Shown here piece by piece: positions 14,353 to 42,543 of a stretch of 42,543 nt of DNA. The stretch lies in the IMG/VR virus record IMGVR_UViG_3300027674_000003, positions 1 to 42,543 of that record, one strand, 5' to 3'. This stretch comes from a virus. A program made the position numbers and the translations under genes. Under the pieces are notes generated by a model. The model was given only the letters and a program-made list of their open reading frames with translations. It was not told the DNA's origin and ran no database searches. The first letter of the stretch is position 1; every line of letters starts with the position of its first letter.

Positions 14353-17300
14353 TTAGTCTTCGCCGGGCTCGCGCGCCGGTTTCTTGGCATCCTCGAGTAA
14401 TTCTTTGGCGAGGCGTTCCTTGACGTAGGTTCCCGCCGGGCCGTGCTTGGCAAGCTGCTGCATCCGTCCTTCGCGCAAGAGTTGCGGCATGTGGGGCAGG
14501 TGTTCGAATTGCGCATCGACCGCTTGCCTCTGCTCGTCGGTCAGCGAGTTGTACGTTTTTAGCTGTTCGGCCTTGGATGTCGGTTTGAGTGTTGGGGCGT
14601 TTTGCTTAGCTGGGGTTTCCTTGGCCATCTCTCTCGCGATGCGTTCGCGCGTTTGCTTAACCGAGCCTTCGGGTAGGGTGTACTCGCCGTTGACCGTCTT
14701 GATGTCGTCCACCGCTTGCTTGTATGCGTCGGCGGCGTTCATTCCGCCGGCGTGGAGTTTGTCTTCGTATTCCTCGACCGTGGGAAGCGTTCGCTTCATG
14801 GCCGGGGCGTTTGCTTTGCCGAATATCTCCCGCTGCGGGCTGGCCTCGGTACCGCGAAAGAGCGGGCTTTTCGTTTCCATCTCGCCGGCGGCTGCGGCAA
14901 TGTTTTCGGCCGGGCGATTGGATTGCCTCGTCATTTCCTCGGCTTGGTGCTTTCCGGCGGCCGCTTTGTTCTCTTCGACCGCTTGGGCCATCCCGGGCAG
15001 AACATCTTTATTTTCTGGGACGGGCTTTGTTGCAGCGCCGCCCGTCCCAGGCGTGGGACCATCTGCCTCTCCCGAACTTCCCGCACCTCCTTCCGAGCGC
15101 TGCGGCGATAGCTCATTCGCTCTGGCCTCCAGCTTGCGGTATCTCGCAATCATGGGCCTTTGCGTGTACGCGCTCTTTGTGCCGCTGATTTTTTTGTCCA
15201 GGTCGCGCATCTGGATTTTCAAGTCTTGCAGTTCTCTTACTGGATCTTGTGCGCCTGCTTTTGCCGTTCCCTTCTTTGTGAGGGTCGGTGCATTGGGTTT
15301 CTCTGGTGGCTTGCTTAGTGTTGGCGGCGGCTCTGGGGCTGGTGGTGCGCTGCCTGGCTCGCCCGGAACATTCTCGACCTTACCGAAAATTGGCTTTAGC
15401 GTCGATGCCGCTTTCGTTGCGTTGCCTTCGCGTTCCGCGGTCAGAACACGATTAGAGGTTGGCTGTATCTTAAGCGTCGGCGGTTCGGTCGTTCCTCGCG
15501 GTGCTGCTGCCGCTGGTGCGCGTTCGTGCGGCGTGAGGGTGGTGCTGCCTTTTTCCGGCAATAGCAGTCCCAGCCTTGTTGCTCGCGTGCCTTCGGCTAC
15601 TCGTGGCTGTGGCGCGTTGCGGATAGGACCGCTCGTGTCTGCCGGCGGCGGCGTGACGGTTGCGCCGGGACCGAGTTCGCCTGCAATCTTGACGCCTGGC
15701 GGCGGGGTTATCGCCGCGGAAGGCTCAAACGCCTTTGGTCCTTGGAAAGCCTGATCTATGAGCCATGCGGGAGTGCGGACGAGGCCCAGTCGCTTTCCTA
15801 CGGCCATCGTTGCGCCTGCCTTGGCTGCGCCTAGAACATTCCCGCTTACAAAGTCGCCTGCCGCCCTGAGTGCTGCCAGCCCTTCCCAAAGGTTTGCGCC
15901 CTTCTGCCGGGTTTCCACGGCGTACTGCTTGGCTGACGCGCGCTCGACATCTCTCAGTGCGCCATACCTGCGCTTGAGGTCTGCGGTTCCCTCGCCGGTT
16001 AGTTTCTCCACGCCGTCGTCCAGCATCTTGCGCAGCACCTTGACTTCCGCCTCGGTCGCGGCCGTCTCGGCGGTGATCGGAGAATCGGTCGGGGTTGACC
16101 GCTTGTAATAGCCGCGCAGATCATCGTTCGCGTCCTGAATGGCGTTCTCGATGTCGCGGAAACTTTTCAAGCCTCGATACGTGTCGGCCCTGGCTTGCAC
16201 TTTCTTGGCAATTTCTGGGTACTGCTCCGCTGTCCGCTTGGAGATTGATTTCTCCATCGCATCGGCTACCGCGTTTGTGTCGGCGCTGAGTTTTGCCACA
16301 CTGCCGGTACGCTGCTCGAGAGCGTTCCAGATGTATTGCTTTGCCGCCCTGACTCCATGCAAGAGATCCCCGTTGCTCTTGAATTCGGTTACCGGGTTGC
16401 CTTCGCGGTCGGTGACGAGGCCCGCTTTCTTCACGGCTTGCAAATCCGAACCGGCTATTGGCATCGACTCTTGGGCTCGGGGAATGTTTACTCCAGGCTG
16501 AATGGCTTGGGTGAGCGCTTTGACTGGCTCGGGCTTCACAATTCCGAGAGTCTTTAGGCCAAGATTCGATTCGACTGCTCGGCGAAGCGGCTTAACTACC
16601 GCTTTCACATCTCGCGCGCCTTCAGCAATTCCGCCAGCTCCGAGCGCTGCGCCTCCTGCCGCTTCCGCGCCGCCGGATAATGCCGCTGCCGCCGCTTCAG
16701 GATTTCCCTTGATTGCTTTTGGGGTATTTTTGACGGCGTTGTATCCGCCGTGCAGGGCGAGTCCCGCGCCGGTCAGCGTGGGTGCTATTGGTGCCGCGGC
16801 TGCAATCGCCAGGCTCGACGGCGTAAGCATTCCCGCTCCCATGCGCAGCGTGTCGGCGCCCATGCGTTCCGTTGTCGGTACAGCGTCTCCGGTCGGCACA
16901 GTGTCCGGCACTCTTTGATTTCGGGAATGGAGAATTGGGGCTGGTTGCACTCCACGTGCGGTATTTATTAGTTGCTGCTGGCGTCTTGTCGCCGCATCGG
17001 TTTCCAGTGCTCTTGCTCCCGCCACAAGTGGGATGCCAAGCGGGCCGCCTGCTTCCTTATAGAGTGCTCGACGTTCTGGCAATCTTGCCGCGCCGCCGCC
17101 GCCCGCTAGGCGCTCTCCCGTATTCGTACTTTCAGCTCCCGGGGCCATGATTGGATTTGGTGGCACATCTGTTTTCAGTGGGGCAATTGCCCGCACATTC
17201 GCCATGTTGCGCGCGATGGTCTGGTCGTCCAGGTGGCCGTATTCGGGAAAACTGCTGCGGAAGTTTTGCGGCTGCGATAGGAACTCGCCTATCTTGTCCT

Positions 17301-17391
17301 CGGATTCGCTCGCGAGGCCAGGGTACTTCGTCCTGGCTTCCGCTATCGGATTCCACGCCTGTCCCGTTAGCGCTTGCGGTGTGGTGGTCAT
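14353..17391 (-). CDS. Large virion-associated protein (1012 aa), internal-core/ejection-protein-like by position
   Basis: Last and largest of three consecutive genes of increasing size (328, 538, 1012 aa) after the tail-tube-like genes, as in the T7 gp14/15/16 order. Ala/Gly/Pro-rich linkers; no enzymatic motif seen. Confidence 0.45.
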   Translation of the reverse strand: MTTTPQALTGQAWNPIAEARTKYPGLASESEDKIGEFLSQPQNFRSSFPEYGHLDDQTIARNMANVRAIAPLKTDVPPNPIMAPGAESTNTGERLAGGGGAARLPERRALYKEAGGPLGIPLVAGARALETDAATRRQQQLINTARGVQPAPILHSRNQRVPDTVPTGDAVPTTERMGADTLRMGAGMLTPSSLAIAAAAPIAPTLTGAGLALHGGYNAVKNTPKAIKGNPEAAAAALSGGAEAAGGAALGAGGIAEGARDVKAVVKPLRRAVESNLGLKTLGIVKPEPVKALTQAIQPGVNIPRAQESMPIAGSDLQAVKKAGLVTDREGNPVTEFKSNGDLLHGVRAAKQYIWNALEQRTGSVAKLSADTNAVADAMEKSISKRTAEQYPEIAKKVQARADTYRGLKSFRDIENAIQDANDDLRGYYKRSTPTDSPITAETAATEAEVKVLRKMLDDGVEKLTGEGTADLKRRYGALRDVERASAKQYAVETRQKGANLWEGLAALRAAGDFVSGNVLGAAKAGATMAVGKRLGLVRTPAWLIDQAFQGPKAFEPSAAITPPPGVKIAGELGPGATVTPPPADTSGPIRNAPQPRVAEGTRATRLGLLLPEKGSTTLTPHERAPAAAAPRGTTEPPTLKIQPTSNRVLTAEREGNATKAASTLKPIFGKVENVPGEPGSAPPAPEPPPTLSKPPEKPNAPTLTKKGTAKAGAQDPVRELQDLKIQMRDLDKKISGTKSAYTQRPMIARYRKLEARANELSPQRSEGGAGSSGEADGPTPGTGGAATKPVPENKDVLPGMAQAVEENKAAAGKHQAEEMTRQSNRPAENIAAAAGEMETKSPLFRGTEASPQREIFGKANAPAMKRTLPTVEEYEDKLHAGGMNAADAYKQAVDDIKTVNGEYTLPEGSVKQTRERIAREMAKETPAKQNAPTLKPTSKAEQLKTYNSLTDEQRQAVDAQFEHLPHMPQLLREGRMQQLAKHGPAGTYVKERLAKELLEDAKKPAREPGED

Positions 17392-17510: not shown

Positions 17511-17633
17511 TTACACTCTATTCATTGCCCGGCGCCGTTCCCTACGATTGGATTGTTGCCCTTGTCGTCGCGTTCGTTGCTTTTCTTCCGGTTTTCCTTT
17601 TGTATCGGCTGCTGCGATTCGTTCTACTGCCAT
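17511..17633 (-). CDS. Possible 40-aa highly basic ORF, weak
   Basis: MAVERIAAADTKGKPEEKQRTRRQGQQSNRRERRRAMNRV. The ATG overlaps the end of the 538-aa gene. Confidence 0.25.
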   Translation of the reverse strand: MAVERIAAADTKGKPEEKQRTRRQGQQSNRRERRRAMNRV

Positions 17634-19240
17634 CCCGGCGGTAAGGCTCCCGCTGCTGGCGCTGCATGTGGTGGTGGTGCGCCCTCTCCAAATCCCTGCT
17701 CCTGCTTTTGCGCCGTCTTCGCCCATTCCTCAATCGATTGCAGCGCTCCCATCAGTGCTGGAACGGAATCCTTGCCCAGTTCCGCTGTTTGGCCAAATTC
17801 CTCAATCGCTTTGACGCTGTTGATGTGGAACTTCGCGGAAGCGCTGCGCAGAAAGGTCAAATCGGTACGCAGTTTGTTGAGTGCCAGGTCCTTGTCGGGA
17901 TCGCCGGTGCTGCCCACTTTGCCGAGTAGAAAGCCGACATTGACGCGGCCCTCGACCGGACCGAGGTAGCCTTTCAAATCCTCGATTTCTTTTTTGATTC
18001 CCGGCAATTCCGTGACTACGCGCGCGGCCGTCTGCGCCTGGCTGCGCGTTTGTCCCGTTGGCGCGCCGGGCATCTGCGCGCCTATCGGCTGGCCTGTTTC
18101 CGGGCTGAGGGGTTGGCCTTGCGGCACGGGCGCCGCCGTGATTTGCTTCATCAAATCGGGCGGCATATTCATCCCCATGCTCTCAAAAATCTGCGGCATC
18201 ATGGCCAGCAATCGGGGGTCTTTCTCTTGCGCATAGTTCAGCAGGCGAACCATCGCATATGTCCCCAGCCCTGTTTTCTGTTTCTCTGCTTCGTGCTGAA
18301 CTTGCTCGGGCGTCCAATCGGGATGTTCTTTCGCCAGTTGCGCCTCGATGTTGTAGCCTGTCGATTTTGCTTGCGCGGTTTTCTTGTCTTGCGCTACTTG
18401 GGCATCTTGGACAGCCGTTCCCCAATCGGCTTGAGCCTTTGCCGTCGACCCCCGATCCGTTGGAGTTTCCCCCGGCGGTCCCCACAACGGCGTGACTGGT
18501 TTCGGCCCAACAATTTGAAGTATCGGGCCGAGTTTTTCCATCTCCGCGGCGTCGGCGGCCTTGAATTGCTCCGGGTAGAGCGGTGCCATTTGCTGGAGAA
18601 TCACTTTCGCCTGGTTCGTGTCGCCTTTTTGAACCGCGTCCCGATAATCGCTTTCGAAGCGCTCGCGAATCGTTTTCGGCTCGGGGTCGGTCCCCATGAG
18701 TTCGGTGCGCTTTTGAACTTCCGCCGTCTGCGCCTGCTTCCCCGCCAGGTCCGCGGCCGTCATCTCTTCTTTCTCGCGTGTCTGGTGCAGGGTGGTCGGA
18801 TACTGCGCGACTTCCTGCCTCTGCTTGTCGAGGTCCGAGCCCCACTGCTGGACGGCCCTTGCCCCTTCGCCCGGCCTGCCGAATTCCATTGCGCCGTAGG
18901 CGAGTGAACGCGCCAGGGTAGACTTCCAGCCTGGTTCCTGAAAACTTGGCTTTGCCGGCACGGCGTTAGGGTTTTCCTTCGCCCAATCCTCATCGGTTTG
19001 GAATGGTTTCGGCTGAACCGTTGCCGCCGACGCGTTGGTCATTGCCGGACCTTGCGGCGTGGTTGGTGTAAGCGTCGGCGGCGCTGGCTTTGACGGATCG
19101 TTTCCCGCGTTCGCGGCTGCGCCCGTGCCGGGAACCGTGCCGCCCTGCGGAGACTGCCCGGGCTGCGGCGTCTTGCCCTGGGCAAGTAGCAGCGCGAGCT
19201 TTTGGCGGATCAGTTCTTCGGGTGTGGGTTGGTCGGCCAT
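17624..19240 (-). CDS. Large virion-associated protein (538 aa), internal-core-like by position
   Basis: Pro/Gln/Gly-rich N-terminus followed by helical regions. Sits between the Hint-domain protein and the 1012-aa protein. Confidence 0.45.
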   Translation of the reverse strand: MADQPTPEELIRQKLALLLAQGKTPQPGQSPQGGTVPGTGAAANAGNDPSKPAPPTLTPTTPQGPAMTNASAATVQPKPFQTDEDWAKENPNAVPAKPSFQEPGWKSTLARSLAYGAMEFGRPGEGARAVQQWGSDLDKQRQEVAQYPTTLHQTREKEEMTAADLAGKQAQTAEVQKRTELMGTDPEPKTIRERFESDYRDAVQKGDTNQAKVILQQMAPLYPEQFKAADAAEMEKLGPILQIVGPKPVTPLWGPPGETPTDRGSTAKAQADWGTAVQDAQVAQDKKTAQAKSTGYNIEAQLAKEHPDWTPEQVQHEAEKQKTGLGTYAMVRLLNYAQEKDPRLLAMMPQIFESMGMNMPPDLMKQITAAPVPQGQPLSPETGQPIGAQMPGAPTGQTRSQAQTAARVVTELPGIKKEIEDLKGYLGPVEGRVNVGFLLGKVGSTGDPDKDLALNKLRTDLTFLRSASAKFHINSVKAIEEFGQTAELGKDSVPALMGALQSIEEWAKTAQKQEQGFGEGAPPPHAAPAAGALPPGWQ

Positions 19241-19241
19241 C

Positions 19242-20228
19242 TTATTCTAATGACCAAAATTCGGAACTTAGATAATCGTGGCTGCCGTCCGTGAGAACCT
19301 GATAGACCGTCTGCTTTCCGAGGTCGGTCATGGTCCTCACAATCGACGGGCCTTTATAGGTTCGGACGTACTGCAAGAGGGCATCTTCCATGCGGGCGTA
19401 TCCCCCGAGCGGCAGGACGATTGTGTGTTTGCGTGAGGCGCAGAGAGTGCAGCCGTTCATCGCTTCGATTTTCACGCATTGGACCGCCTCATATATTCTG
19501 AGCGCCGTCACGCGGTTTTCCTTGCCGTTTTGCGAGGCGAGAGGCATTCCCGGCAATACGTTCTGAACGGCGATCAGGCTTCCATCGGCCAGCATGAGCA
19601 TGGTGCCTTCGCAGAGACAGGTCATCGCGCCGCTTGCCGCCGTGCCGCCCGCGCTAAGCGCGCTGTCGAGGATGCCGATGTTTTGACCGCGTGTGTCCGT
19701 CGCGGCCTTTTGTCCGGTTCCGTAAAGATTCGTGTATGCGCCCGTTCCCTGTCCCGTCTGCGTGTTGGCCGTGCCGGATGCGGTATTGGTGGCTTTCCAG
19801 AAATTGTTGAGGGCGTCCTGATAGCTGTTGCCGGCGAATTGCGAGAACAGTTGGCCGTTGTTCTGCGCGTTCGACATATCGGCCTGACTCTTCAGGAATC
19901 CGGTATAGCCTGACGGTGCGCCTGTGCCGAAACCTCGCTGGCCGGCCTCCCGATCAATTGCCTGTTTCGCTTGGTCTGTGTTTGTCGCGCCTTGCGCTTT
20001 GGCTTGGTTGTACTGGAGGGCGTAGGGGCCGGTGGGCTGGGTGACGTCCAGGCTCGCCGGGTTCATCATTCCCGAAAGCGTGCCGCCCGACATTCCCCCG
20101 CCGCCGGGCTTGGGCGTTCCGAAAAGTGTGGCGTTTAATCCTTCGCCGGTTGCGGTGGAACTGCCTGCCGCGTTTGAACCGGCTCCGAATGCTTGATCCG
20201 CTTGTTTCTGTTGGTGGCCGCCGCCCAT
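19242..20228 (-). CDS. Gly/Gln/Asn/Thr-rich protein with a C-terminal Hint (Hedgehog/intein-like) domain (328 aa)
   Basis: About 200 aa of low-complexity sequence, then CLCEGTMLMLADGSLIAVQNVLPGMPL (Hint block A pattern C-x-x-x-G-T-x-V...DG). SRKH resembles block B (TxxH). The protein ends ...GSHDYLSSEFWSLE, with no terminal HN and no extein. Confidence 0.6.
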   Translation of the reverse strand: MGGGHQQKQADQAFGAGSNAAGSSTATGEGLNATLFGTPKPGGGGMSGGTLSGMMNPASLDVTQPTGPYALQYNQAKAQGATNTDQAKQAIDREAGQRGFGTGAPSGYTGFLKSQADMSNAQNNGQLFSQFAGNSYQDALNNFWKATNTASGTANTQTGQGTGAYTNLYGTGQKAATDTRGQNIGILDSALSAGGTAASGAMTCLCEGTMLMLADGSLIAVQNVLPGMPLASQNGKENRVTALRIYEAVQCVKIEAMNGCTLCASRKHTIVLPLGGYARMEDALLQYVRTYKGPSIVRTMTDLGKQTVYQVLTDGSHDYLSSEFWSLE

Positions 20229-20238
20229 GCGTGTCAGT

Positions 20239-20721
20239 CTATGACGCTTGACTCAATTCTGGAGAATTGATTTTAGGGCTTGTGGCTAACGGGTCACGCA
20301 TCTGCACGTCTTTCCACATGAGACGCGCTCGACTGTAGACGGCCGGCTTCATTCCGTATTCGAGGGCGACTTTCTCCATGCGCTTGTTGGAAATTGCTCC
20401 GAAGTAGCGATTTAGCCCGGTCGTGTTTTTCGTTGAATCGCCGAGCCATGCTTCCATCGCGCGGATTAGTTTGTAGACTGCCCTGCGTTTTGTGATCGGG
20501 CTCGCGTCCCGGTCGAATTCCGGCGTGAGCCAAAGAGGCTCGATTTGCCAGATCAGCCGCGCGCCGATGCAGCCTGAAAGAATCTCGTTGTGCTTGATGA
20601 CGTACAGAATTCGCCTGTCCAGGTCGTGGCTCTCGTTGTTCGTTTGGGCGAGACGATTGCATAGGTACTTCAGGTCCTCGGCCGTGGGGACGGAGATTGT
20701 TCCGTTGAAAGGTTCGGTCAC
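20239..20721 (-). CDS. Hypothetical protein (160 aa), last gene of the modification island
   Basis: GTG start overlaps the C5-MTase stop (GTGA 20718..20721). No motif recognised with confidence. Confidence 0.55.
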   Translation of the reverse strand: MTEPFNGTISVPTAEDLKYLCNRLAQTNNESHDLDRRILYVIKHNEILSGCIGARLIWQIEPLWLTPEFDRDASPITKRRAVYKLIRAMEAWLGDSTKNTTGLNRYFGAISNKRMEKVALEYGMKPAVYSRARLMWKDVQMRDPLATSPKINSPELSQAS

Positions 20722-21593
20722 GCGCTCACCGCTTTAATTTGCGGCTTGAAACACCGGGCGATGTGCTGCGCCAGTGGAAAGGGTATCTTGGCGATTTCGG
20801 CGGAGGCGGCTTTGCGGGAATCGGATTTGGAAGTGCGATCTGGAACCATGCGGTTGTTTGACTTGAGCGTCCCGTTTGGACGCCATCCCGAGGCATCATT
20901 TTTCTCGGCTCTAAATCTCTGCGCGTTCCGCACGTTGAATCCGACTTCGCTTAGCTTCGTACCTGGAGATTTCAAGCCGCGCACAGACGCAGACTGGAAC
21001 GACCCTTGACCATTAAAACGAAAGCCGGGAACCTTGCGCCCATCTGGATTGCCGCCTACGGTCTTCTGATTCGGAGCCCCGATTGCAAACCATGAGCCGC
21101 CGCCAACGTCGATATTTTTAGAAGCTTTAAATGTTGGCGGCATCAACGCCGGAACATCTCCCCACAGGTAATAGCTTCCGAAATGCCATAGTGCAGAGCC
21201 GACCCAGCGTTCCGCCCCGCGCACATTCTCCACAATCATTGGAATGTAATGCCCTGCCGCTTCACTTGCCTCACGCTGGATGCGGAAGCAGGCGTTGAAC
21301 AGTTCGATGAAGTTGTGCGGCGGTCCTATCGCGTTGAGTGCCTTCGCCCGACTCCATGGCATCGCGCGATAGCTTGGCTCCTGGCATGGCGGAGATGCCA
21401 CGATGCACGTTGCATCTGCAAGCTGCGAGCCGTGAATGCTGCGCACGTCGCAGAGAATCAGTTCGCCGGGATACGTCCCTGTGCCGTAATCGTGCTTTTC
21501 GATGTCGTAGCCGATGCAGTGAAATCCTTCGGAGAGGAAGCCTTCCGCCCAGCCGCCGAGGCCGCAGTACAGGTCATAGCAGATTGGTTTCAT
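20718..21593 (-). CDS. dcm: DNA (cytosine-5)-methyltransferase (291 aa from MKPICYD)
   Basis: Motif I DLYCGLGGW, motif IV SPPCQ, motif VI ENV. The ATG at 21593 forms ATGA with the upstream stop. The 144-aa N-terminal extension in the track is Arg/Pro-rich and overlaps the upstream gene. Confidence 0.85.
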   Translation of the reverse strand: MKPICYDLYCGLGGWAEGFLSEGFHCIGYDIEKHDYGTGTYPGELILCDVRSIHGSQLADATCIVASPPCQEPSYRAMPWSRAKALNAIGPPHNFIELFNACFRIQREASEAAGHYIPMIVENVRGAERWVGSALWHFGSYYLWGDVPALMPPTFKASKNIDVGGGSWFAIGAPNQKTVGGNPDGRKVPGFRFNGQGSFQSASVRGLKSPGTKLSEVGFNVRNAQRFRAEKNDASGWRPNGTLKSNNRMVPDRTSKSDSRKAASAEIAKIPFPLAQHIARCFKPQIKAVSA

Positions 21594-21994
21594 GGGCTCA
21601 CAATCGACTGCGGCCCATGCAGAATCGCCGCGTTGTTCGGATTGAGCGCCGTGATGCGCAGCCAGTAGAAAACTTTCTTGCCGGCAATCTTCGCGCTGAT
21701 GTCGGCGTAGTTCACGAGATTGGCTTCCGACACCGCCGCACTGAATTCCGTCAGTTGCGTGGCGTTGCCGAAGTCGCGCGTCAGGTTGCGATAGACTTGC
21801 ACCGAGCTTACGCCTGGCACGCTCGCGATGCGGAAGGCGATTTGGACGTGGCCTGCGGCTGGGCCTGGGGTGACGCGGAATATCTGGGTGGGGTCGCTGA
21901 AACCTGGGCCTGGGGTGACTAGCTTTTGGACTTTGCTCGTGAGGTCTTGAAGGACCGCGCTTTGCTGCTGCTGGCCTATGCGGACGCCGGTCAC
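21590..21994 (-). CDS. FN3/Ig-like beta-sandwich protein (134 aa)
   Basis: Tandem 15-aa units VTPGPGFSDPTQIFR / VTPGPAAGHVQIAFR. SSVQVYRN...KVFYWLRITALN resembles an FN3-type strand pattern. GTGA overlap at 21991..21994. Confidence 0.5.
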   Translation of the reverse strand: MTGVRIGQQQQSAVLQDLTSKVQKLVTPGPGFSDPTQIFRVTPGPAAGHVQIAFRIASVPGVSSVQVYRNLTRDFGNATQLTEFSAAVSEANLVNYADISAKIAGKKVFYWLRITALNPNNAAILHGPQSIVSP

Positions 21995-22851
21995 AAAAGC
22001 TGCCTCTGCGACATTGAAGATTCACAATTCTTTACGTTCTTCGTTCGCTTCTCGGAAAGATCGTGGGCCATCTCTTGCTCTGCCATCGCGCAGAAAAACG
22101 AGCATGATATTTCTGGCTCGTCATGTCGGCCTTTGTTTGGCGGTAGATTTCTCAGCGAGTAGCGTTCACCTGTCTCGCGGTCCCTAAATAAGAATGCTCC
22201 TGGGCCAATGGATTCCTGCACGTCTGCAAGAGCTACAAAATTCTCAGGAAAATCAATGCGCTGCCTATTGAAGTAGCCTTCGCCGCCCTTCACACAGCAT
22301 TTGCAGTTGTTATTGTTGTAGCCGAGTAGGTACATCGCTGGAAGGGCAATTCCCGCCCTTTCAATCATCGCCAAGGTATCAGCCTTTTTCAGTCCTCTTT
22401 CGATTAGCGGGAAAAGCATTTTGCGCCCATTGTTTGTGTCCATGAGTTCACTGGCGCGGTCTTCCTCCTCGGCGGTAAATCCGATCACCCAAATATCATC
22501 GGGCAAACCAGCAGCTTCGAGCACATCGCCTTTGAGAGCTTTGCGGCACGGTGCTCCCATTTGCCCTTTCAGATAGCGCTTGCGCTTGAACACCTCGATC
22601 ACAGATGCCCCATACTTTGTGTCGCGCAGAACTGTAATGGGATGACCGAACCATGTTTCGCAATCGGCACTAAAGCGGTCGTTGTCCTCATGCTCTTCTT
22701 TGATCCACGCCCGCAGGATGTGAACGCGCTCGGCGGAATATTCTCCAAGAATCAGTTTGGTTGCCACAGCAGATGCGGCTCCGCAAGAGAAACGGGAAAC
22801 GATCCTCGGCAAGTGCCGCGCATCGCCTTTGATGAATCGGATGTCGGTCAT
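21991..22851 (-). CDS. PAPS-reductase-fold (CysH/DndC-like) PP-loop enzyme (286 aa)
   Basis: N-terminal SRFSCGAASAVATKL resembles the CysH-type nucleotide-binding loop. C-terminal Cys clusters NNCKCCVKGG and ISCSFFC. ATGA overlap with the Dam stop. Confidence 0.55.
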   Translation of the reverse strand: MTDIRFIKGDARHLPRIVSRFSCGAASAVATKLILGEYSAERVHILRAWIKEEHEDNDRFSADCETWFGHPITVLRDTKYGASVIEVFKRKRYLKGQMGAPCRKALKGDVLEAAGLPDDIWVIGFTAEEEDRASELMDTNNGRKMLFPLIERGLKKADTLAMIERAGIALPAMYLLGYNNNNCKCCVKGGEGYFNRQRIDFPENFVALADVQESIGPGAFLFRDRETGERYSLRNLPPNKGRHDEPEISCSFFCAMAEQEMAHDLSEKRTKNVKNCESSMSQRQLL

Positions 22852-23702
22852 GGGGCCGCGTCCTCGGCAAAAGTCATTTGCGGGGTTACTCTTGCGGCGC
22901 GCTCATTCATCCAGACCACTTCGACGCGCTTCCGTGCTCCATCGGCTCGCCAAGGAATTTCAATTCGTCGCCAATCGGGGAAAAGTTCGCAGTCGTAGAG
23001 CGGCGAGGCGTAGCCGCTTAGAATCACCATCCCGCGCACTGCCCTGAGAATTTGGGCAAGTTTCCGGTGATCGTTGTCGGCCATGTCGCACGAATAAACC
23101 GCGTTGCCTCGCGCCATATTGCGAGTTCCCACCTGGTAGGGTGGATCGCAATAGAAAAGTGTTTCGGATGTGTCGTGCTGCGGAATGAGTTCGAGCGCGT
23201 CTTTGTTTTCGATGACCACGCCACGCAATCGCTCTGTGAATGATGCGATTGAATCTGGAAAGTTCATCCAATCATGCGCTGGCGTAGTGCCACTTCTGTT
23301 TGAATTGGAGCGGAAGCCGGTTGCGTAATCTCCATTTATCGCGGCTGATCCAAAGCCAGCGAATGAGCGAAGGATGCAAAGGCGAGCAGCTTCTATATCG
23401 GCTGGCCGTTGTACCCTGTGGCCAAAAGCGGAATTGAATTCACTTCGCGCGAAGGGCGTCAGTCTCAGTTGCTCTTTAAGCTGCTCAGCTATTTCAGGAT
23501 CGCGCAGGCATTGGAAGACGTTAACAACCGTGTCCCATTTGTCGTTGATGACTTCGGCGTAGGAGCGCGGCTTTTGCATGAGCACTGAAGCAGCTCCACA
23601 AAACGGTTCGACGTAGATTCGATGTCGCGGAAACAAACTAATCAAAACTCGCGCGAACAACCACTTGCCGCCGTGATACCGAAGTATAGGCCTGCCTTTC
23701 AC
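22848..23702 (-). CDS. dam: DNA N6-adenine methyltransferase, Dam/D12 class (284 aa)
   Basis: RYHGGKW at the N-terminus, EPFCGAASV (AdoMet loop) and YCDPPY (motif IV). GTG start overlaps the upstream stop (GTGA 23699..23702). Confidence 0.85.
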   Translation of the reverse strand: MKGRPILRYHGGKWLFARVLISLFPRHRIYVEPFCGAASVLMQKPRSYAEVINDKWDTVVNVFQCLRDPEIAEQLKEQLRLTPFARSEFNSAFGHRVQRPADIEAARLCILRSFAGFGSAAINGDYATGFRSNSNRSGTTPAHDWMNFPDSIASFTERLRGVVIENKDALELIPQHDTSETLFYCDPPYQVGTRNMARGNAVYSCDMADNDHRKLAQILRAVRGMVILSGYASPLYDCELFPDWRRIEIPWRADGARKRVEVVWMNERAARVTPQMTFAEDAAP

Positions 23703-25732
23703 GGCACCAGTGCCTTAATCGGTCGTGCGCTCACACTCAGCCGGTAGAGCGTGCTCGCCGTATTATCGTTCAGGAAGATTACGGCAAACCTAAACCAGTG
23801 GCCGAGGTTCGCTCCTGTCACGTCTTTGATGTTTCCCCGCGCCGCCGTCGGCTCGTTGCGATTGCCGGTCTGAAACGGATTGAGCGGCACGTCCACCATT
23901 GGGAGCTGCATGTCCGGGGATAGTACACCGAGCGCCTTGAGTTGGAAAGCGGTATAGGCGTCTTGCCGGTCGGTCACGAGATCGGCCCACATGGCCAGCT
24001 TCTCGACGTTCGCAATTGGCATTGGATGAAACATACTTCCGCCATGGTAGACCTTCAGCGCTGACCACGCGCTGCCCCACACGCCGTAATACCCCTTGCC
24101 CGCATCCAGAAAGCCATCGGGCCAGCGATAGACGTTCCCGAGCTGGTCGCCCATGAAGAGGTACATTTGATTCGCTACTTCAACGAGCGCCGCGGCGGTC
24201 ATGATGTCCGAAGGCCAGAAATCCGACTCCGCGATAATGTGTGTCGTGCCGTCTTCGAGCACGGTTGGAATCAGCGTTTGCGCCAGCACCTTTGGCAAAA
24301 ACGTCATGTCCCACACTTGAATCCAGTCGTAGGTTCCCGGCGGCGCTGCTCCCGTGTTCACCAGCAGCATGATCCACTCGTAGCGCCCGAAGGAATACCA
24401 CTTGAGGACCGCGTTTTTTAGCTGCGAGGCGGGAATGTCTTCCATGCTCATCGTCCCGGTGAGTTGCTTGGCAATGAGCATCGAAAGGTCCAGCGGAATG
24501 TTTACGCCGTCCCAGGCGTAGAGTTTTCTGTCCGCGCTCAGCCAAATAAGATGCGTTCTGCTGGTCGTCGCGGCTTGCTTTCCCACGGCTCCGGGTTCGG
24601 CTACCTTGTCCTTTTCCTCGAAGTTCGTTACATCGCTTCCCGAGAGCGAAAACCAGAATCTTTCCGTCGAAACGTAGAGCGACTGGTTCCAGACTTGGCC
24701 GTTCGTGAATTGGTGCTTGCCGCCGGGGATCTTGAAAAACAGGTATGGGGGCGCCGTCTCGGCCGGGACTCCCAGACTGATTTCGCTTCCGCCGCACGCC
24801 TGGATGATGTTGGGCTCGCCGTTCACGCGCAACAAGATCGGACGGCCGGCGTACTGCACGATGATTTCCGCCGGGGGAACCGGAAAGTTGAGAAGCGGCG
24901 CCAGTCGCGTCGGATCGAGAAATTGGTCGTTGAGCGTGTCCGTGAACGCGGGCGCGGCAATTGGCACTTCGCCCAAGAACTGAAAAACCGACGCTGAATT
25001 GTTTGGCGTGTCGTAGGTTGAAAAATACCAGATGTGCGTCACCTGGGCATCGACTCCCGCCGTGTTCAAGTTCAAAGCCACGCTGCCGTTCACGACGGGG
25101 CCGGTAAACAGCGAGATTGCGGACGCAAGTCCCACGCTGATTCGCGTGTCTCCCAGCGCGTCCGTGATTTTGGCCACGTAAGCGGCCATGTACTGACGGC
25201 CGAATTGCAAATTCAGGATTCCCGAGCCTTGCGAGACAACGAAGGTCGACGCGGCCACCGGAGGGCCGATTCCCCAGTTGAATTTCGTGAGGCTTCCGGC
25301 AACGTCAACCAAGCGGTAGGCCGCGAGTCCGTTCGATGTGTAGCAGGCGAAATCCAAACTGGAGAAGTCGAAAAGCGCGGTGAGGTCTTCGTAGGGCGGC
25401 GTTGACACGATGACGTTGTTTCCGAATGTAGGCCCTAAGACGTTCCCGGCAATTATAAATGACCTGTTCCCGGCGGGGGTGACAAGCTGACTGAGCAAAA
25501 ACTGGGCGTTATCGGAATCCCTTTGAAAATCGAACAGTTTGAGAACTTTTCCCGTGTTGTCGAAGTGTTCGACCAGCGTATAGCCCGGGCGCTTGGCTAC
25601 GGCTTTATCGCCTAGAAACACCACGTTGGACGCAAGCAAGCACTGCTCCGGAGACATTTCCGTGAGATTTTTGTTGCTGCATCTTCCGCCGAGGAAGTTG
25701 GAGAAGACTTGGACGTTGAGCCCTTGGATCAT
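23699..25732 (-). CDS. Large tail structural protein (677 aa), nozzle/tail-tubular-B-like by position
   Basis: Fourth gene after the capsid gene. Beta-rich composition, and its size fits a podovirus nozzle. No motif-level support. Confidence 0.4.
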   Translation of the reverse strand: MIQGLNVQVFSNFLGGRCSNKNLTEMSPEQCLLASNVVFLGDKAVAKRPGYTLVEHFDNTGKVLKLFDFQRDSDNAQFLLSQLVTPAGNRSFIIAGNVLGPTFGNNVIVSTPPYEDLTALFDFSSLDFACYTSNGLAAYRLVDVAGSLTKFNWGIGPPVAASTFVVSQGSGILNLQFGRQYMAAYVAKITDALGDTRISVGLASAISLFTGPVVNGSVALNLNTAGVDAQVTHIWYFSTYDTPNNSASVFQFLGEVPIAAPAFTDTLNDQFLDPTRLAPLLNFPVPPAEIIVQYAGRPILLRVNGEPNIIQACGGSEISLGVPAETAPPYLFFKIPGGKHQFTNGQVWNQSLYVSTERFWFSLSGSDVTNFEEKDKVAEPGAVGKQAATTSRTHLIWLSADRKLYAWDGVNIPLDLSMLIAKQLTGTMSMEDIPASQLKNAVLKWYSFGRYEWIMLLVNTGAAPPGTYDWIQVWDMTFLPKVLAQTLIPTVLEDGTTHIIAESDFWPSDIMTAAALVEVANQMYLFMGDQLGNVYRWPDGFLDAGKGYYGVWGSAWSALKVYHGGSMFHPMPIANVEKLAMWADLVTDRQDAYTAFQLKALGVLSPDMQLPMVDVPLNPFQTGNRNEPTAARGNIKDVTGANLGHWFRFAVIFLNDNTASTLYRLSVSARPIKALVP

Positions 25733-25734
25733 GG

Positions 25735-26754
25735 CTAATCGAGGTCTTGCAAGTACGTTTCCTGTCGGGTCGGCTGCTGGTTCTGCCGGTTGCGCACAAA
25801 GGTCAGGAATTCAGTGGTCTTCTGCATAGCCTGTTGCTCGTACTGCGGCGCGAGGTCGTCGCTGTTTCCTCTCAATAGCTCTGCCTTCGCAAAGTCCAGT
25901 TGCGCGCCGTGACCCTCGTCGGGAATTACGTTGTACGAATTGGCATTGTAGATGTCTACCCACTTCGCGGCGTAGATTATTTCCGTCTGCCTCTGGTCGG
26001 AGGGCGGCGGCGCAAGTCTCACTTTATAGGGGCCTTTGTCCTGCGTCGGCTGGCCGATTGGTGGGGGCCACGTTCCTGCGGCTGTCACACCGAGCGAAGT
26101 CTGCTGATTGAGGGGAAGTGTCGCCATCGGAAAGGGTGACACACGATAGCTCGAGCTGAATGCCACCGTCAGCCATGAGAAAACACCCGCGTTCGATACC
26201 ACAAGCTGCCAGGAAGTCGTGTTGCCCGCATCGTTCAAGTAAAACGGCACAATCGGCGGAAGCGCGGAGCCGAACATCGGCGTGCTGGTCGGAAGTCCCG
26301 CATCGTTGATGCCGAATTGCCAGTAGGTCCCGTTTGGCGCGAGACACACGATTGCCTGCGGCCCTGCGGCGCGCGGCAAGTACGGCCCGGCATAAACGAA
26401 GTCGGATTGCAGAAGATCAAGTGACAACACGATGGGCTCAAACTGGCGGTTGGTGAACAGATCGGTTCGCACGTCGGCAGGCTGAATCCGGCGGTAGTTC
26501 GTTTCCCCTGGAAGGCGTTCTCCAAAGCGGATCATCGTCGCCAGGTCCGGCGGGCAGGCGTACTCGTCTTGCCCGGGGACCGTCTGGATTGAAGTTGAAT
26601 CCCATTTGATGAAATAGTTCGAGAGTTCCTTGGCAATCCACAGGTACACGCGGCGCCCGCCCTCGTTGATGGCCGCAAACACATCGTCCGGCTGGTTCGT
26701 GTGGCTGTAGTAGCTGCCACGGTCGGCCAGCGCGAACATTTGAGCGAGGGTCAA
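25735..26754 (-). CDS. Tail/adaptor structural protein (339 aa), by position
   Basis: TTG start overlaps the upstream stop (TTGA 26751..26754). Sits between the capsid-proximal genes and the 677-aa gene. Confidence 0.4.
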   Translation of the reverse strand: MTLAQMFALADRGSYYSHTNQPDDVFAAINEGGRRVYLWIAKELSNYFIKWDSTSIQTVPGQDEYACPPDLATMIRFGERLPGETNYRRIQPADVRTDLFTNRQFEPIVLSLDLLQSDFVYAGPYLPRAAGPQAIVCLAPNGTYWQFGINDAGLPTSTPMFGSALPPIVPFYLNDAGNTTSWQLVVSNAGVFSWLTVAFSSSYRVSPFPMATLPLNQQTSLGVTAAGTWPPPIGQPTQDKGPYKVRLAPPPSDQRQTEIIYAAKWVDIYNANSYNVIPDEGHGAQLDFAKAELLRGNSDDLAPQYEQQAMQKTTEFLTFVRNRQNQQPTRQETYLQDLD

Positions 26755-41516: not shown

Positions 41517-42543
41517 TCAGTTCATAATCAAATAGCTGTAGCAATTCGGATTCGTGACCGGCGCTGAACCTGTAACAGTAAAACTGGTGGCCGCAACCCT
41601 GGCGGAAACAAGGACGCTATCTATTCCCGTGTTGCAAGTCACTCCTAATCGCGCACCGAGGGAATCGTCATTAAACACGATGATTTCAGAGTTGGCCGTG
41701 ACCGCGGTTGTGTTCACGGTGACGGAGGTTGTGGTGGCGGCGAGTGTGAACATGCCCGCCGCCGCAGAGCCGCAGACCGCAGGCGATGCGCTGGAGTTGC
41801 AATTCGTGCCCGTGGCATATTTGCCGGGCTTGATAGTCCCTGTCACATCCGATGCAGTACCGTTTCCAACATCCATAACACCGGCGGAATCGCGTGAAAT
41901 AGCGGTATCCAAGGCATTAGTATCGAGTGACCCAGATGCAAATCCCAAAGCGGCGGTTGGAAGAACCCTTACTGAATTAGTAAAAGCCGCCAATTGACTT
42001 ACGCCTGTTACTTCCAAGGTGACACCACCACCCACTGAAAATATGCCACTTCCCCCCGCACCAATTCCCAATCCTGGCGTTGTCACTGCTCCCACGGGGA
42101 CTTGAATATTATTACTTGACACAATTGGATTTGTCGTGGTTCCCGCGACCGCTGGAGCGGTTAAAGTCGCCGTGCCGCTGGTTGTGCCTTTAAGTCCTAA
42201 AATGCCGGAGGTTCCTACCGCTCCGACATTGAATTGCGGCACGCTGGATAGTGAGCATCCTGTTCCGCAAATCATCGCCGCCGTTGTATTTGTAGCTCCG
42301 GTGATGGCGCTGAATGCAGGCGCGCCGCCGGGTGCTCCTCCATCGGTCAAGGTGCATGTCGTGGCGACAACCGTACACGTCACCACGTCGCCGGTGGTGG
42401 GAACCGCAGTAAAACCCGCGATTGTGTTCGTGGTGGTCGCACCACTGACAAAGATCGTGTGCGCGTTCGCGGCGCTATTGGCGAGCGTCACGATTCCGGC
42501 GAGGCTGTTATCTGTACCAGCGGAATAATTCCCATTGATGTCA
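41517..42543 (-). CDS. C-terminal part of the junction-spanning fibre-like gene (continues from 854..1)
   Basis: The track ORF 41517..42491 begins at an internal GTG. The frame stays open to the window end and is in phase with 1..854 through the 99-bp overlap. Confidence 0.7.
   Translation of the reverse strand, partial: DINGNYSAGTDNSLAGIVTLANSAANAHTIFVSGATTTNTIAGFTAVPTTGDVVTCTVVATTCTLTDGGAPGGAPAFSAITGATNTTAAMICGTGCSLSSVPQFNVGAVGTSGILGLKGTTSGTATLTAPAVAGTTTNPIVSSNNIQVPVGAVTTPGLGIGAGGSGIFSVGGGVTLEVTGVSQLAAFTNSVRVLPTAALGFASGSLDTNALDTAISRDSAGVMDVGNGTASDVTGTIKPGKYATGTNCNSSASPAVCGSAAAGMFTLAATTTSVTVNTTAVTANSEIIVFNDDSLGARLGVTCNTGIDSVLVSARVAATSFTVTGSAPVTNPNCYSYLIMN
42445..42543. repeat. Terminal direct repeat copy B (99 bp), identical to 1..99
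   Basis: Same 99-mer as 1..99. It lies inside an open reading frame, so it looks like a circularisation overlap rather than a physical end. Confidence 0.95.

Follow-up and report, generated by a model that had tools for sequence, protein, structure and literature searches.

Hint domains are known from splicing inteins, bacterial intein-like domains (BILs), the processing domains of Hedgehog proteins and the pre-toxin HINTs. In many class 1 inteins an Asp at position 4 of block F (F:4) aids catalysis. In the C-terminal part of Hedgehog proteins (HhC) a sterol-recognition region lies behind the Hint domain, and the N-terminal domain is transferred to cholesterol. BILs have no nucleophile at position +1; type A keeps the C-terminal His-Asn, whereas type B also lacks similarity in block G and its cleavage is uncoupled from splicing (PMC4031507, summarising Amitai et al. 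2003). BIL2 of the Tetrahymena BUBL polyubiquitin locus conjugates its upstream ubiquitin-like domain to lysines of substrates in an ATP-independent, isopeptide-forming reaction (PMC8616854). Here we describe a phage protein whose extreme C-terminus is a Hint domain. The gene is located on the minus strand at positions 19242..20228 of the IMG/VR virus record IMGVR_UViG_3300027674_000003, whose entire stretch of 42,543 nucleotides (nt) is referred to as the window in the following.

The open reading frame (ORF) starts with ATG and encodes a precursor of 328 amino acids (aa). Its strand, coordinates and C-terminus agree with an earlier note made from the letters of the window. Residues 1–203 (19620..20228, minus strand like all parts of the gene) form an N-terminal domain (N-domain) that equals the complete protein of relatives without a Hint domain. 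It closes with a Gly/Ala-rich linker, S192-T203 (...SAGGTAASGAMT; 19620..19655), which ends at the predicted scissile bond between T203 and C204. The Hint domain occupies the remaining 125 aa, C204-E328 (19245..19619; C204 codon 19619-19617), and the protein terminates with ...GSHDYLSSEFWSLE at the TAA codon 19244-19242. The ATG of the next gene, encoding 538 aa, is found at 19240, 1 nt beyond this stop. An identical protein is represented in a public collection (cluster P0001).

Searches with the single sequence of the whole protein gave neither a Hint nor any other match in Pfam, PHROGs and NCBIfam; in the PDB, four of five weak matches were inteins with C204 aligned on the intein Cys1. A homologue search found 21 proteins, of which 10 share the C-terminal module and form its profile (alignments A1 and A2). 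Compared with the PDB, this profile matched almost exclusively inteins and BILs: Tetrahymena BIL2 (E-value 9e-7) and the gp41-1 intein (1.5e-6, positions 15–121), followed by Prp8 inteins (1.8e-5), PI-SceI (1e-4) and the BIL of C. thermocellum (3e-3). The top match, Tako8, is a designed repeat protein for which seven weak repeats had been summed, and was discarded as an artefact. Among the 10 module members nine match Hom_end_hint, six Hint_2 and four Vint, all below the gathering score (best E-value about 6e-5, for Hint_2 5.9e-5), and a few relatives have a precomputed match to PF05203. The Hint, Hom_end and Vint families named in the earlier note are thus recovered by members of the family, although only at sub-gathering scores, and are missed when the single sequence is used. 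The AlphaFold2 model of the module is all-beta with a predicted local distance difference test score (pLDDT) of 96.3. In a Foldseek search against the PDB the top 50 matches were all inteins, BILs or Hedgehog HhC, with E-values down to 5e-9 and template modeling (TM) scores of 0.8–0.88. Among the viral models of BFVD the best matches were phage proteins automatically annotated as 'Hint' (TM 0.91). The C-terminal 125 aa are a genuine Hint domain, well beyond chance; both the domain that had been read from the letters and the fold expected of it are borne out.

We assigned the active site by residue-level alignment to characterised inteins and counted conservation over 156 Hint modules of the family. 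Block A (C204-L-C206-EGTMLMLADGS..., 19539..19619) opens with the A:1 nucleophile Cys1, which aligns to the intein Cys1 and is kept in 153 modules. Block B (S265-R-K-H268-T269, 19422..19436), the equivalent of the intein TxxH, aligns to the gp41-1 and PabCDC21-1 inteins; its Ser is found in 147 and its His in 155 modules. Block F (V308-YQVLTDGSH317DYLSS, 19263..19307) aligns to VYD...HNFvANG of the DnaX, CDC21 and DnaB inteins, and its His (H317) is kept in 147 modules. At the position of block G (W325-S-L-E328, 19245..19256) the penultimate His is replaced by Leu and the terminal Asn by Glu, and the stop follows. In all 107 relatives that end with the Hint domain like the window protein (type 1; class counts cover the library sequences retrieved) the stop is located at the same position directly past the last Hint strand, leaving no C-extein. 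None of them ends in HN, and the final residue is Glu in 78. Without HN, a +1 nucleophile or a C-extein, N-terminal cleavage or transfer is the sole remaining chemistry, not splicing. Judged from these sequences, the machinery of the first step, the N-S acyl shift, is conserved and the residues for transesterification and Asn cyclisation are absent; we class the domain on this basis as an N-cleavage-only Hint of BIL-B/Hedgehog-like type and not as an intein. The positions of block A at C204 and of block B at S265/H268 as well as the missing junction and C-extein, all listed in the earlier note, were confirmed by the alignment. Its expectation of N-terminal cleavage or transfer instead of splicing is supported by the lost residues and by natural short forms which end at or just past the predicted site.

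As the downstream gene begins 1 nt past the stop, one might suspect a genuine splicing intein whose C-extein, for example the 538-aa protein, was missed owing to a frameshift, mis-assembly or mis-annotation. The common stop of all 107 type-1 relatives and the lack of HN in every one of them speak against this. In addition the 538-aa protein begins Met-Ala-Asp, offering no Cys/Ser/Thr junction, and the two genes are also separate in relatives without Hint. On the grounds of the shared stop, the missing HN and the Met-Ala-Asp start we rejected this explanation, whose probability we regard as negligible.

Comparison with described Hint domains is in line with this classification. Class 1 mini-inteins (gp41-1, MchDnaB-1, Ssp/Npu DnaB and the splicing domain of Mtu RecA) share the fold (TM 0.82–0.88) and a similar size of about 125–140 aa without endonuclease insert. 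Their blocks A, B and F can be aligned, with Cys1, B:7 Ser/Thr, B:10 His and F:13 His kept. In contrast to these inteins, the phage Hint is not inserted into a protein; it lacks a C-extein and the +1 Cys/Ser/Thr, has Leu-Glu instead of the block G His-Asn and an unconserved F:4, and is therefore unable to splice. With BILs of type B it shares the missing +1 nucleophile and the missing block G (W-S-L-E for x-V-H-N), so that cleavage would be expected by analogy. The C. thermocellum BIL (2LWY) is a match both of the sequence profile and of the fold. Regarding membership by sequence, six of the 10 module members match Hint_2 below the gathering score, a comparison at the level of the Pfam family. 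BILs differ in being located within bacterial proteins, most of them secreted or hypervariable, so that the domain is flanked on either side, whereas the phage Hint sits at the extreme C-terminus; type A further differs in keeping the His-Asn that the phage Hint lacks.

A C-terminal location is shared with HhC, which releases an N-terminal signalling or functional domain via a Cys-thioester without splicing and is a fold match (1AT0, E-value 1.7e-5, TM 0.83), suggesting an analogous course in the phage protein. Unlike HhC, type-1 phage proteins end with the Hint domain (Hint position 125) and have no region for recognition of a sterol or another adduct. BIL2 (PDB 6Y75/6TMM) is at once the best significant sequence match and a top fold match. 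Its Hint domain stands, as in the phage protein, directly behind a small domain; in BIL2 the C-terminus of that domain is activated. BIL2 differs in keeping its C-terminal Asn (the crystal construct is an N143A mutant) and in being followed by a second ubiquitin-like domain that provides the acceptor lysine; the phage protein has no downstream domain. Pre-toxin HINTs are located upstream of the C-terminal toxin they release, whereas nothing follows the phage Hint, or only a tail of 13–33 aa in some relatives (type 2, see below).

We consider it reasonably likely that the Hint domain folds, carries out the N-S acyl shift at the T203/C204 bond and frees the N-domain by hydrolysis of the resulting thioester. 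The precursor consists of a low-complexity, helix-prone protein of about 200 aa, which the Gly/Ala linker joins to a minimal Hint of 125 aa that closes the polypeptide. In the folded Hint, Cys204 would attack the carbonyl of Thr203, helped by Ser265 and His268 of block B, and convert the T203-C204 peptide bond into a thioester. Because C-extein, +1 nucleophile, terminal Asn and penultimate His are all missing, the reaction cannot go on to transesterification or Asn cyclisation. An external nucleophile would open the thioester, with water the most likely one. The predicted products are a mature N-domain (residues 1–203) of about 20 kDa, as encoded directly by the Hint-less relatives, and a free Hint of 14 kDa. 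Cleavage might take place before, during or after packaging. Plausibly, the Hint serves as a pro-domain that can be removed from the C-terminus and through which a protein rich in Q, N and G and prone to assemble stays soluble or inactive before assembly begins. Phage tailspikes and fibres with C-terminal chaperone domains (peptidase S74) share the concept of a C-terminal domain that removes itself once its job is done. Peptidase S74 uses a Ser-Lys dyad acting after trimerisation, and its fold and chemistry are unrelated to a Cys-thioester Hint.

The N-domain itself had been described as disordered and of low complexity. Its composition is indeed strongly biased, G, Q, N, T, A and S accounting for 69% of residues 1–203 compared with 37% of residues 204–328. 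However, the homologue alignment shows conserved motifs (PTGPYALQY, GFGAGAPSGY, SYQDALNNFWKA and LYG) and structure prediction gives long helices at low confidence (pLDDT 30–69), so that 'disordered' was an overstatement. The linker is conserved among Hint-bearing long forms as G-x-V/A-G-x-A-A-[M/A/L] followed by the Cys.

Searching the whole library with a profile gave 3446 proteins with E<=1e-3, of which 328 reached E<=1e-10. Besides the 107 type-1 proteins, among which WSLE is the commonest ending, we found 43 of type 2, with a conserved tail of 13–33 aa behind the Hint (WSLG continued by VGEAERxVxMxxWxxIG...), six with the Hint alone and 24 large proteins with canonical inteins ending in HN or with tandem Hint repeats. 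The tail of type 2 looks like an amphipathic helix by its sequence, and type-2 relatives (e.g. P0046, P0048 and P0053) are likewise without His-Asn or +1 nucleophile. The phage-type Hint is found on at least three sequence-distinct groups of N-domains, each about 180–230 aa long and rich in Q, A, G, N, S and T. Altogether the architecture with a terminal Hint recurs in >150 phage protein clusters at 50% identity. As a separate observation, seven of the large proteins (P0023, P0030, P0062, P0094, P0155, P0161 and P0165; 660–1130 aa) consist of Hints arranged head-to-tail with ...VHN/KGGGCF... at the junctions (slash after the Asn). Lys instead of a nucleophile follows the His-Asn, an unusual BIL-A-like array unrelated to the phage family.

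To compare forms with and without Hint, homologues were collected with a profile of the N-domain only (alignment A3), giving 61 with Hint and 20 without. After removal of fragments about 11 of the 20 are genuine short forms; for three of them (L002, L005 and L006) the context was checked and the next gene begins at the stop. Short forms end within the Gly/Ala linker (G-x-V-G-A-A-A-M before the Cys in long forms) or a few Lys-rich residues beyond it. Lys/Gly-rich tails such as GGKA, GKKV, GNKGKGK, GKSRGR, GKGKH and GGKKK are located where the Hint would begin (P0014, P0015, P0018, P0172, P0174, P0197, P0200 and L007) and may be a functional substitute for it. On a tree of the N-domain the short forms are scattered among Hint-bearing lineages, requiring at least about 9 changes by parsimony; the tree was a simple neighbor-joining tree without support values. 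The pairwise identities of N-domain and Hint are correlated (rho 0.55). The simplest reading of these comparisons is that the Hint is ancestral, was inherited vertically and was probably lost several times, each time exactly where the two domains meet. The scatter of the short forms indicates that the N-domain works without a Hint, and the repeated loss at the boundary that the N-domain alone is the functional mature protein, just as N-terminal cleavage would yield it.

In the closest relative (L001, JGI 3300082193 Ga0672915_0001857; 85% identity in the N-domain and 90.5% in the Hint) the two parts are split. Alignment of L001 10590-10640 to window 19620-19650 shows a 29-nt insertion in the linker with a GGGTAGGCCG direct repeat, which brings a stop and a change of frame. 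The ORF of the N-domain ends with ...GRPPGRP and the stop, which overlaps as TGATG with a separate Hint ORF of 127 aa (MTCLCEGT...WSLE); this ORF was independently predicted by the JGI gene calling. A programmed frameshift was also considered and is not supported in L001: no slippery site is present, and TAG stops interrupt the -1 frame within the insertion. A second case is L007 (Logan SRR29078195_851457, 120-200). Its short-form gene is intact (...AYAGGKKK), and behind it comes a free-standing Hint ORF (MMQCPCEG...FWSLS) with its own AGGAGG Shine-Dalgarno sequence and an ATGA overlap. The upstream gene ends AAG-AAA-AAA-TGA; the Hint has the -1 frame relative to it, and this frame crosses the junction without a stop (RRLCICRRKEKMMQCPCEG). 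Speculatively, a -1 slip on the A-run would fuse N-domain and Hint and give both forms from one locus. A further homologue search with the Hint profile also found at least two free-standing forms. Between the fused window gene and the split L001 genes the ratio of nonsynonymous to synonymous changes (dN/dS) is 0.083 for the Hint at dS 0.79 and 0.162 for the N-domain. The Hint is thus under strong purifying selection and not a decaying remnant.

Patchy presence and repeated precise loss would equally fit a passenger derived from an intein, domesticated or 'addictive', that had lodged at the gene's 3' end. Such an element would use the same chemistry, bring no benefit to the phage and be kept since failed self-removal would cripple its host protein. 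The occurrence of the same Hint subtype on at least three distinct N-domain groups fits this explanation, and purifying selection would also be expected of an element forced to excise itself. On the other hand, the 125-aa module contains no homing endonuclease or other mobility function. The Hint furthermore appears ancestral and mostly vertically inherited, and its presence is the majority state (61 of 81). Intact free-standing Hint ORFs with their own ribosome-binding site are also hard to explain, as a simple deletion would suffice to be rid of the element. We regard a mere passenger as rather unlikely.

The free-standing ORFs could instead point to a function of the Hint of its own, in binding, assembly, as a virion component or as a Cys enzyme acting in trans. 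In that case the fusion would only serve co-expression or co-packaging, and cleavage would be incidental or absent. In two independent lineages the ORFs are located in exactly the same slot with overlaps suited for translational coupling (TGATG, ATGA). The six free-standing representatives in the library, and the low dN/dS of the split L001 copy against the fused one (0.08), can be read in the same way. However, the invariant residues are those of autoprocessing (Cys1 and Ser/His of block B), for which no role outside acyl-shift chemistry is known. Fused forms outnumber free ones by about 150 to 6, some of the 'free' forms may be truncated gene calls, and the split in L001, due to a 29-nt insertion, is possibly very recent. 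Overall this explanation appears improbable to us.

A third alternative retains the conserved first step and differs in the fate of the thioester. As in Hedgehog and BUBL proteins, the activated Thr203 could be passed to a particular nucleophile, for instance a lysine on another virion protein or a host protein, an amino-lipid of the phosphatidylethanolamine type or a cell-wall amine, so that the N-domain would be anchored or cross-linked covalently during maturation or ejection. BIL2 as the best significant PDB sequence match and HhC among the fold matches are consistent with transfer. The acidic C-terminus (Glu in 78 of 107 type-1 proteins) lies at the block G position beside the active site and could act as a general base. 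Against transfer, there is no sterol- or adduct-recognition or other acceptor-binding module, the protein ending at the last Hint strand, and no candidate acceptor was found. Hint-less relatives moreover function with an ordinary C-terminus, so that covalent attachment is not essential. We therefore judge transfer quite unlikely.

A special form of transfer concerns genome delivery. Here the Hint would be a single-use 'warhead': the C-terminus of an ejected protein would be held as a latent thioester and ligated on entry to a nucleophile of host or virion (lipid amine, peptidoglycan amine or lysine). The nucleophile has a second Cys beside it in 36 of the 107 type-1 Hints, as C-x-C in 26 and as C-C in 10; the Hint of the window shows the former arrangement (C204-L-C206, 19611-19619). 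A Cys at module position 48 (C251 in the window) occurs in 63 of 107 type-1 but only 2 of 43 type-2 Hints. Going by their positions, these extra Cys residues could form a disulfide 'redox lock' on Cys1, comparable to engineered and natural redox-trapped inteins. For an ejected protein, the Cys1-x-Cys or Cys-Cys pair of about one third of the members might lock the Hint in the oxidising exterior, and Hint-less relatives would use their Lys-rich tail non-covalently instead. We consider this form a long shot.

Returning to release of the N-domain by hydrolysis, several observations weigh against it. The F:4 Asp is replaced by Gln in the window protein and by R, H, K or P in most relatives. The Hint has been dispensed with repeatedly across the N-domain tree, a neighbor-joining tree without support values. 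The independent free-standing Hints of L001 and L007 have intact catalytic residues. As cleavage in cis would remove only 2–3 residues from them, they suggest a role beyond self-removal. The Hint may thus keep some value when unfused; of all observations this speaks most strongly against a role in cis-processing alone. Finally, the N-domain, its profile included, gave no match to any solved ejection or core protein in Pfam, PHROG or the PDB.

To consider a possible role in the virion we analyzed the genome context. The first ~100 nt of the window are directly repeated at its end (1-~100 and ~42445-42543), indicating a complete genome of ~42.4 kb that was circularly assembled or is terminally redundant; contigs of relatives measure 40.5–44.5 kb. 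On the minus strand the order is P22-like portal, genes of the capsid module, SU10-type adaptor, a 677-aa gene, a methyltransferase island, genes of 134 and ~138 aa, the Hint gene and genes of 538 and 1012 aa. The head-to-tail adaptor (25735..26754) matches Pfam SU10_adaptor with an E-value of 2.3e-8, above the gathering score. The 677-aa gene (23699..25732) has no match in Pfam or the PDB and was assigned as a nozzle-sized tail gene by its size and its position beside the adaptor. The 134-aa gene (21590..21994) is kept in L001, L002 and L003 with 49–89% identity, and the small gene directly upstream of the Hint gene (20239..20721), ~138 aa long in relatives, is also conserved. Behind the Hint gene follow the 538-aa gene (17624..19240), syntenic and fast-evolving, and the 1012-aa gene (14353..17391), both without family or PDB match. 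These would be the second and third members of a putative trio of internal or ejection proteins. At the protein level the gene order is conserved in L001–L003 except for the methyltransferase island, and the position of the trio also in L005 and L006. The two large downstream proteins evolve much faster than capsid and nozzle, with 42–55% identity to those of relatives compared with 88–95%.

The gene order resembles the layout gp13-gp14-gp15-gp16 of T7, in which gp14 measures 196 aa. The smallest ejection proteins of the T7 gp14/P22 gp7 type correspond to the Hint-bearing protein in position and predicted helicity, and the N-domain and short forms are of about 190–215 aa. In contrast, there is no similarity by sequence or profile, and two conserved small genes intervene. 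The slot of T7 gp14 that the earlier note had proposed thus holds in so far as the Hint gene opens a series of three genes that increase in size (328, 538 and 1012 aa) downstream of the adaptor and the nozzle-sized gene, in a conserved order. It does not hold as an immediate succession to the tail genes, since the two small genes and, in this genome, the methyltransferase island lie between, and no protein of the trio matches known ejection or core proteins. PDB searches with the 538-, 677- and 1012-aa proteins as well as Pfam searches with larger homologues in relatives gave no match to an ejection protein. From gene order we infer that three internal or ejection-type virion proteins of an uncultured, podovirus-like phage are encoded here, with the N-domain as the smallest and the first in line.

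We also assessed whether the architecture is covered by databases and literature. PHROGs gave nothing for nine relatives, and no PHROG or NCBIfam model covers the Hint-bearing family. A tblastn search of GenBank phages with the window protein found no match; with P0024, P0046 and the type-2 consensus as queries every match was a classical intein, located in helicases, terminases or a tape measure protein. The latter, from Ruegeria phage DSS3-P1, was considered as a cultured example and discarded, as it carries a canonical intein (...HHN/T) inserted between GKG and TLQ. Nor was the architecture described in the full texts of PMC and bioRxiv, which were searched for Hint or BIL domains in connection with phages and with ejection, internal virion or polyvalent proteins. 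A terminal Hint with only the thioester half of the chemistry is thus widespread in phage proteins but uncurated, without a description in Pfam at gathering score, PHROGs, NCBIfam, GenBank phages or these full texts. UniProt contains proteins of uncultured phages (318–521 aa) automatically annotated as 'Hint' or 'Hint domain containing protein'; A0A8S5UY86, A0A8S5MW95, A0A6J5KSY2 and A0A873WIS2 are among the BFVD matches. A0A873WIS2 is an uncharacterised protein of 317 aa with the same fold from the cultured Providencia phage PSTNGR1. A cultivable model might exist among these proteins.

Known cases of maturation in phage virions involve prohead proteases or S74 chaperone domains. If the proposed cleavage is true, it would represent a new maturation chemistry for virion or ejection proteins of phages. 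The family would then also be a natural set of very small N-cleaving Hints independent of a C-extein, with possible use in tag removal and thioester generation. In addition, the fused, split and lost forms would make a clean evolutionary series in which the gain, domestication and loss of Hint domains can be followed. If ligation on entry were true instead, conjugation of the Hedgehog/BUBL type, independent of ATP, would take part in the delivery of phage genomes.

The methyltransferase island (20718-23702, minus strand), which separates the nozzle-sized gene from the small conserved ones, contains a D12-class N6-adenine methyltransferase (22848-23702; PF02086, 5e-18), a 286-aa ORF without Pfam match (21991-22851) and a C5-cytosine methyltransferase in an ORF of 435 aa (20718-22025; PF00145, 2e-5). 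The last ORF is over-extended: the match begins only at residue ~145 (MKPICYDLYCGLGGW...), and its 5' part overlaps the conserved 134-aa gene in another frame. The island is missing from L001 and L003 and present only in fragments in L002. It is probably an anti-restriction cargo module.

A lead to the host comes from P0180 (L010–L012), located in a metagenome-assembled genome of a 'Candidatus Acidoferrales' bacterium (NCBI GCA_035567675.1). There the Hint protein forms a trio with proteins of 474 and 1960 aa, adjoining a tyrosine integrase, serine recombinases and a bacterial-type gene with a Pro-kumamolisin domain. The locus probably belongs to a prophage or temperate phage of Acidobacteriota. 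At least some members of the family may accordingly be temperate phages that infect diderm Acidobacteriota. At the end of the window genome an ORF of 324 aa (41517-42491, minus strand) shows a sub-threshold match to the C-terminal domain of K1 capsule-specific polysaccharide lyase (PF24146, E-value 1.5e-5, 25.8 bits against a cutoff of 27) and is possibly a fragment of a tailspike or depolymerase.

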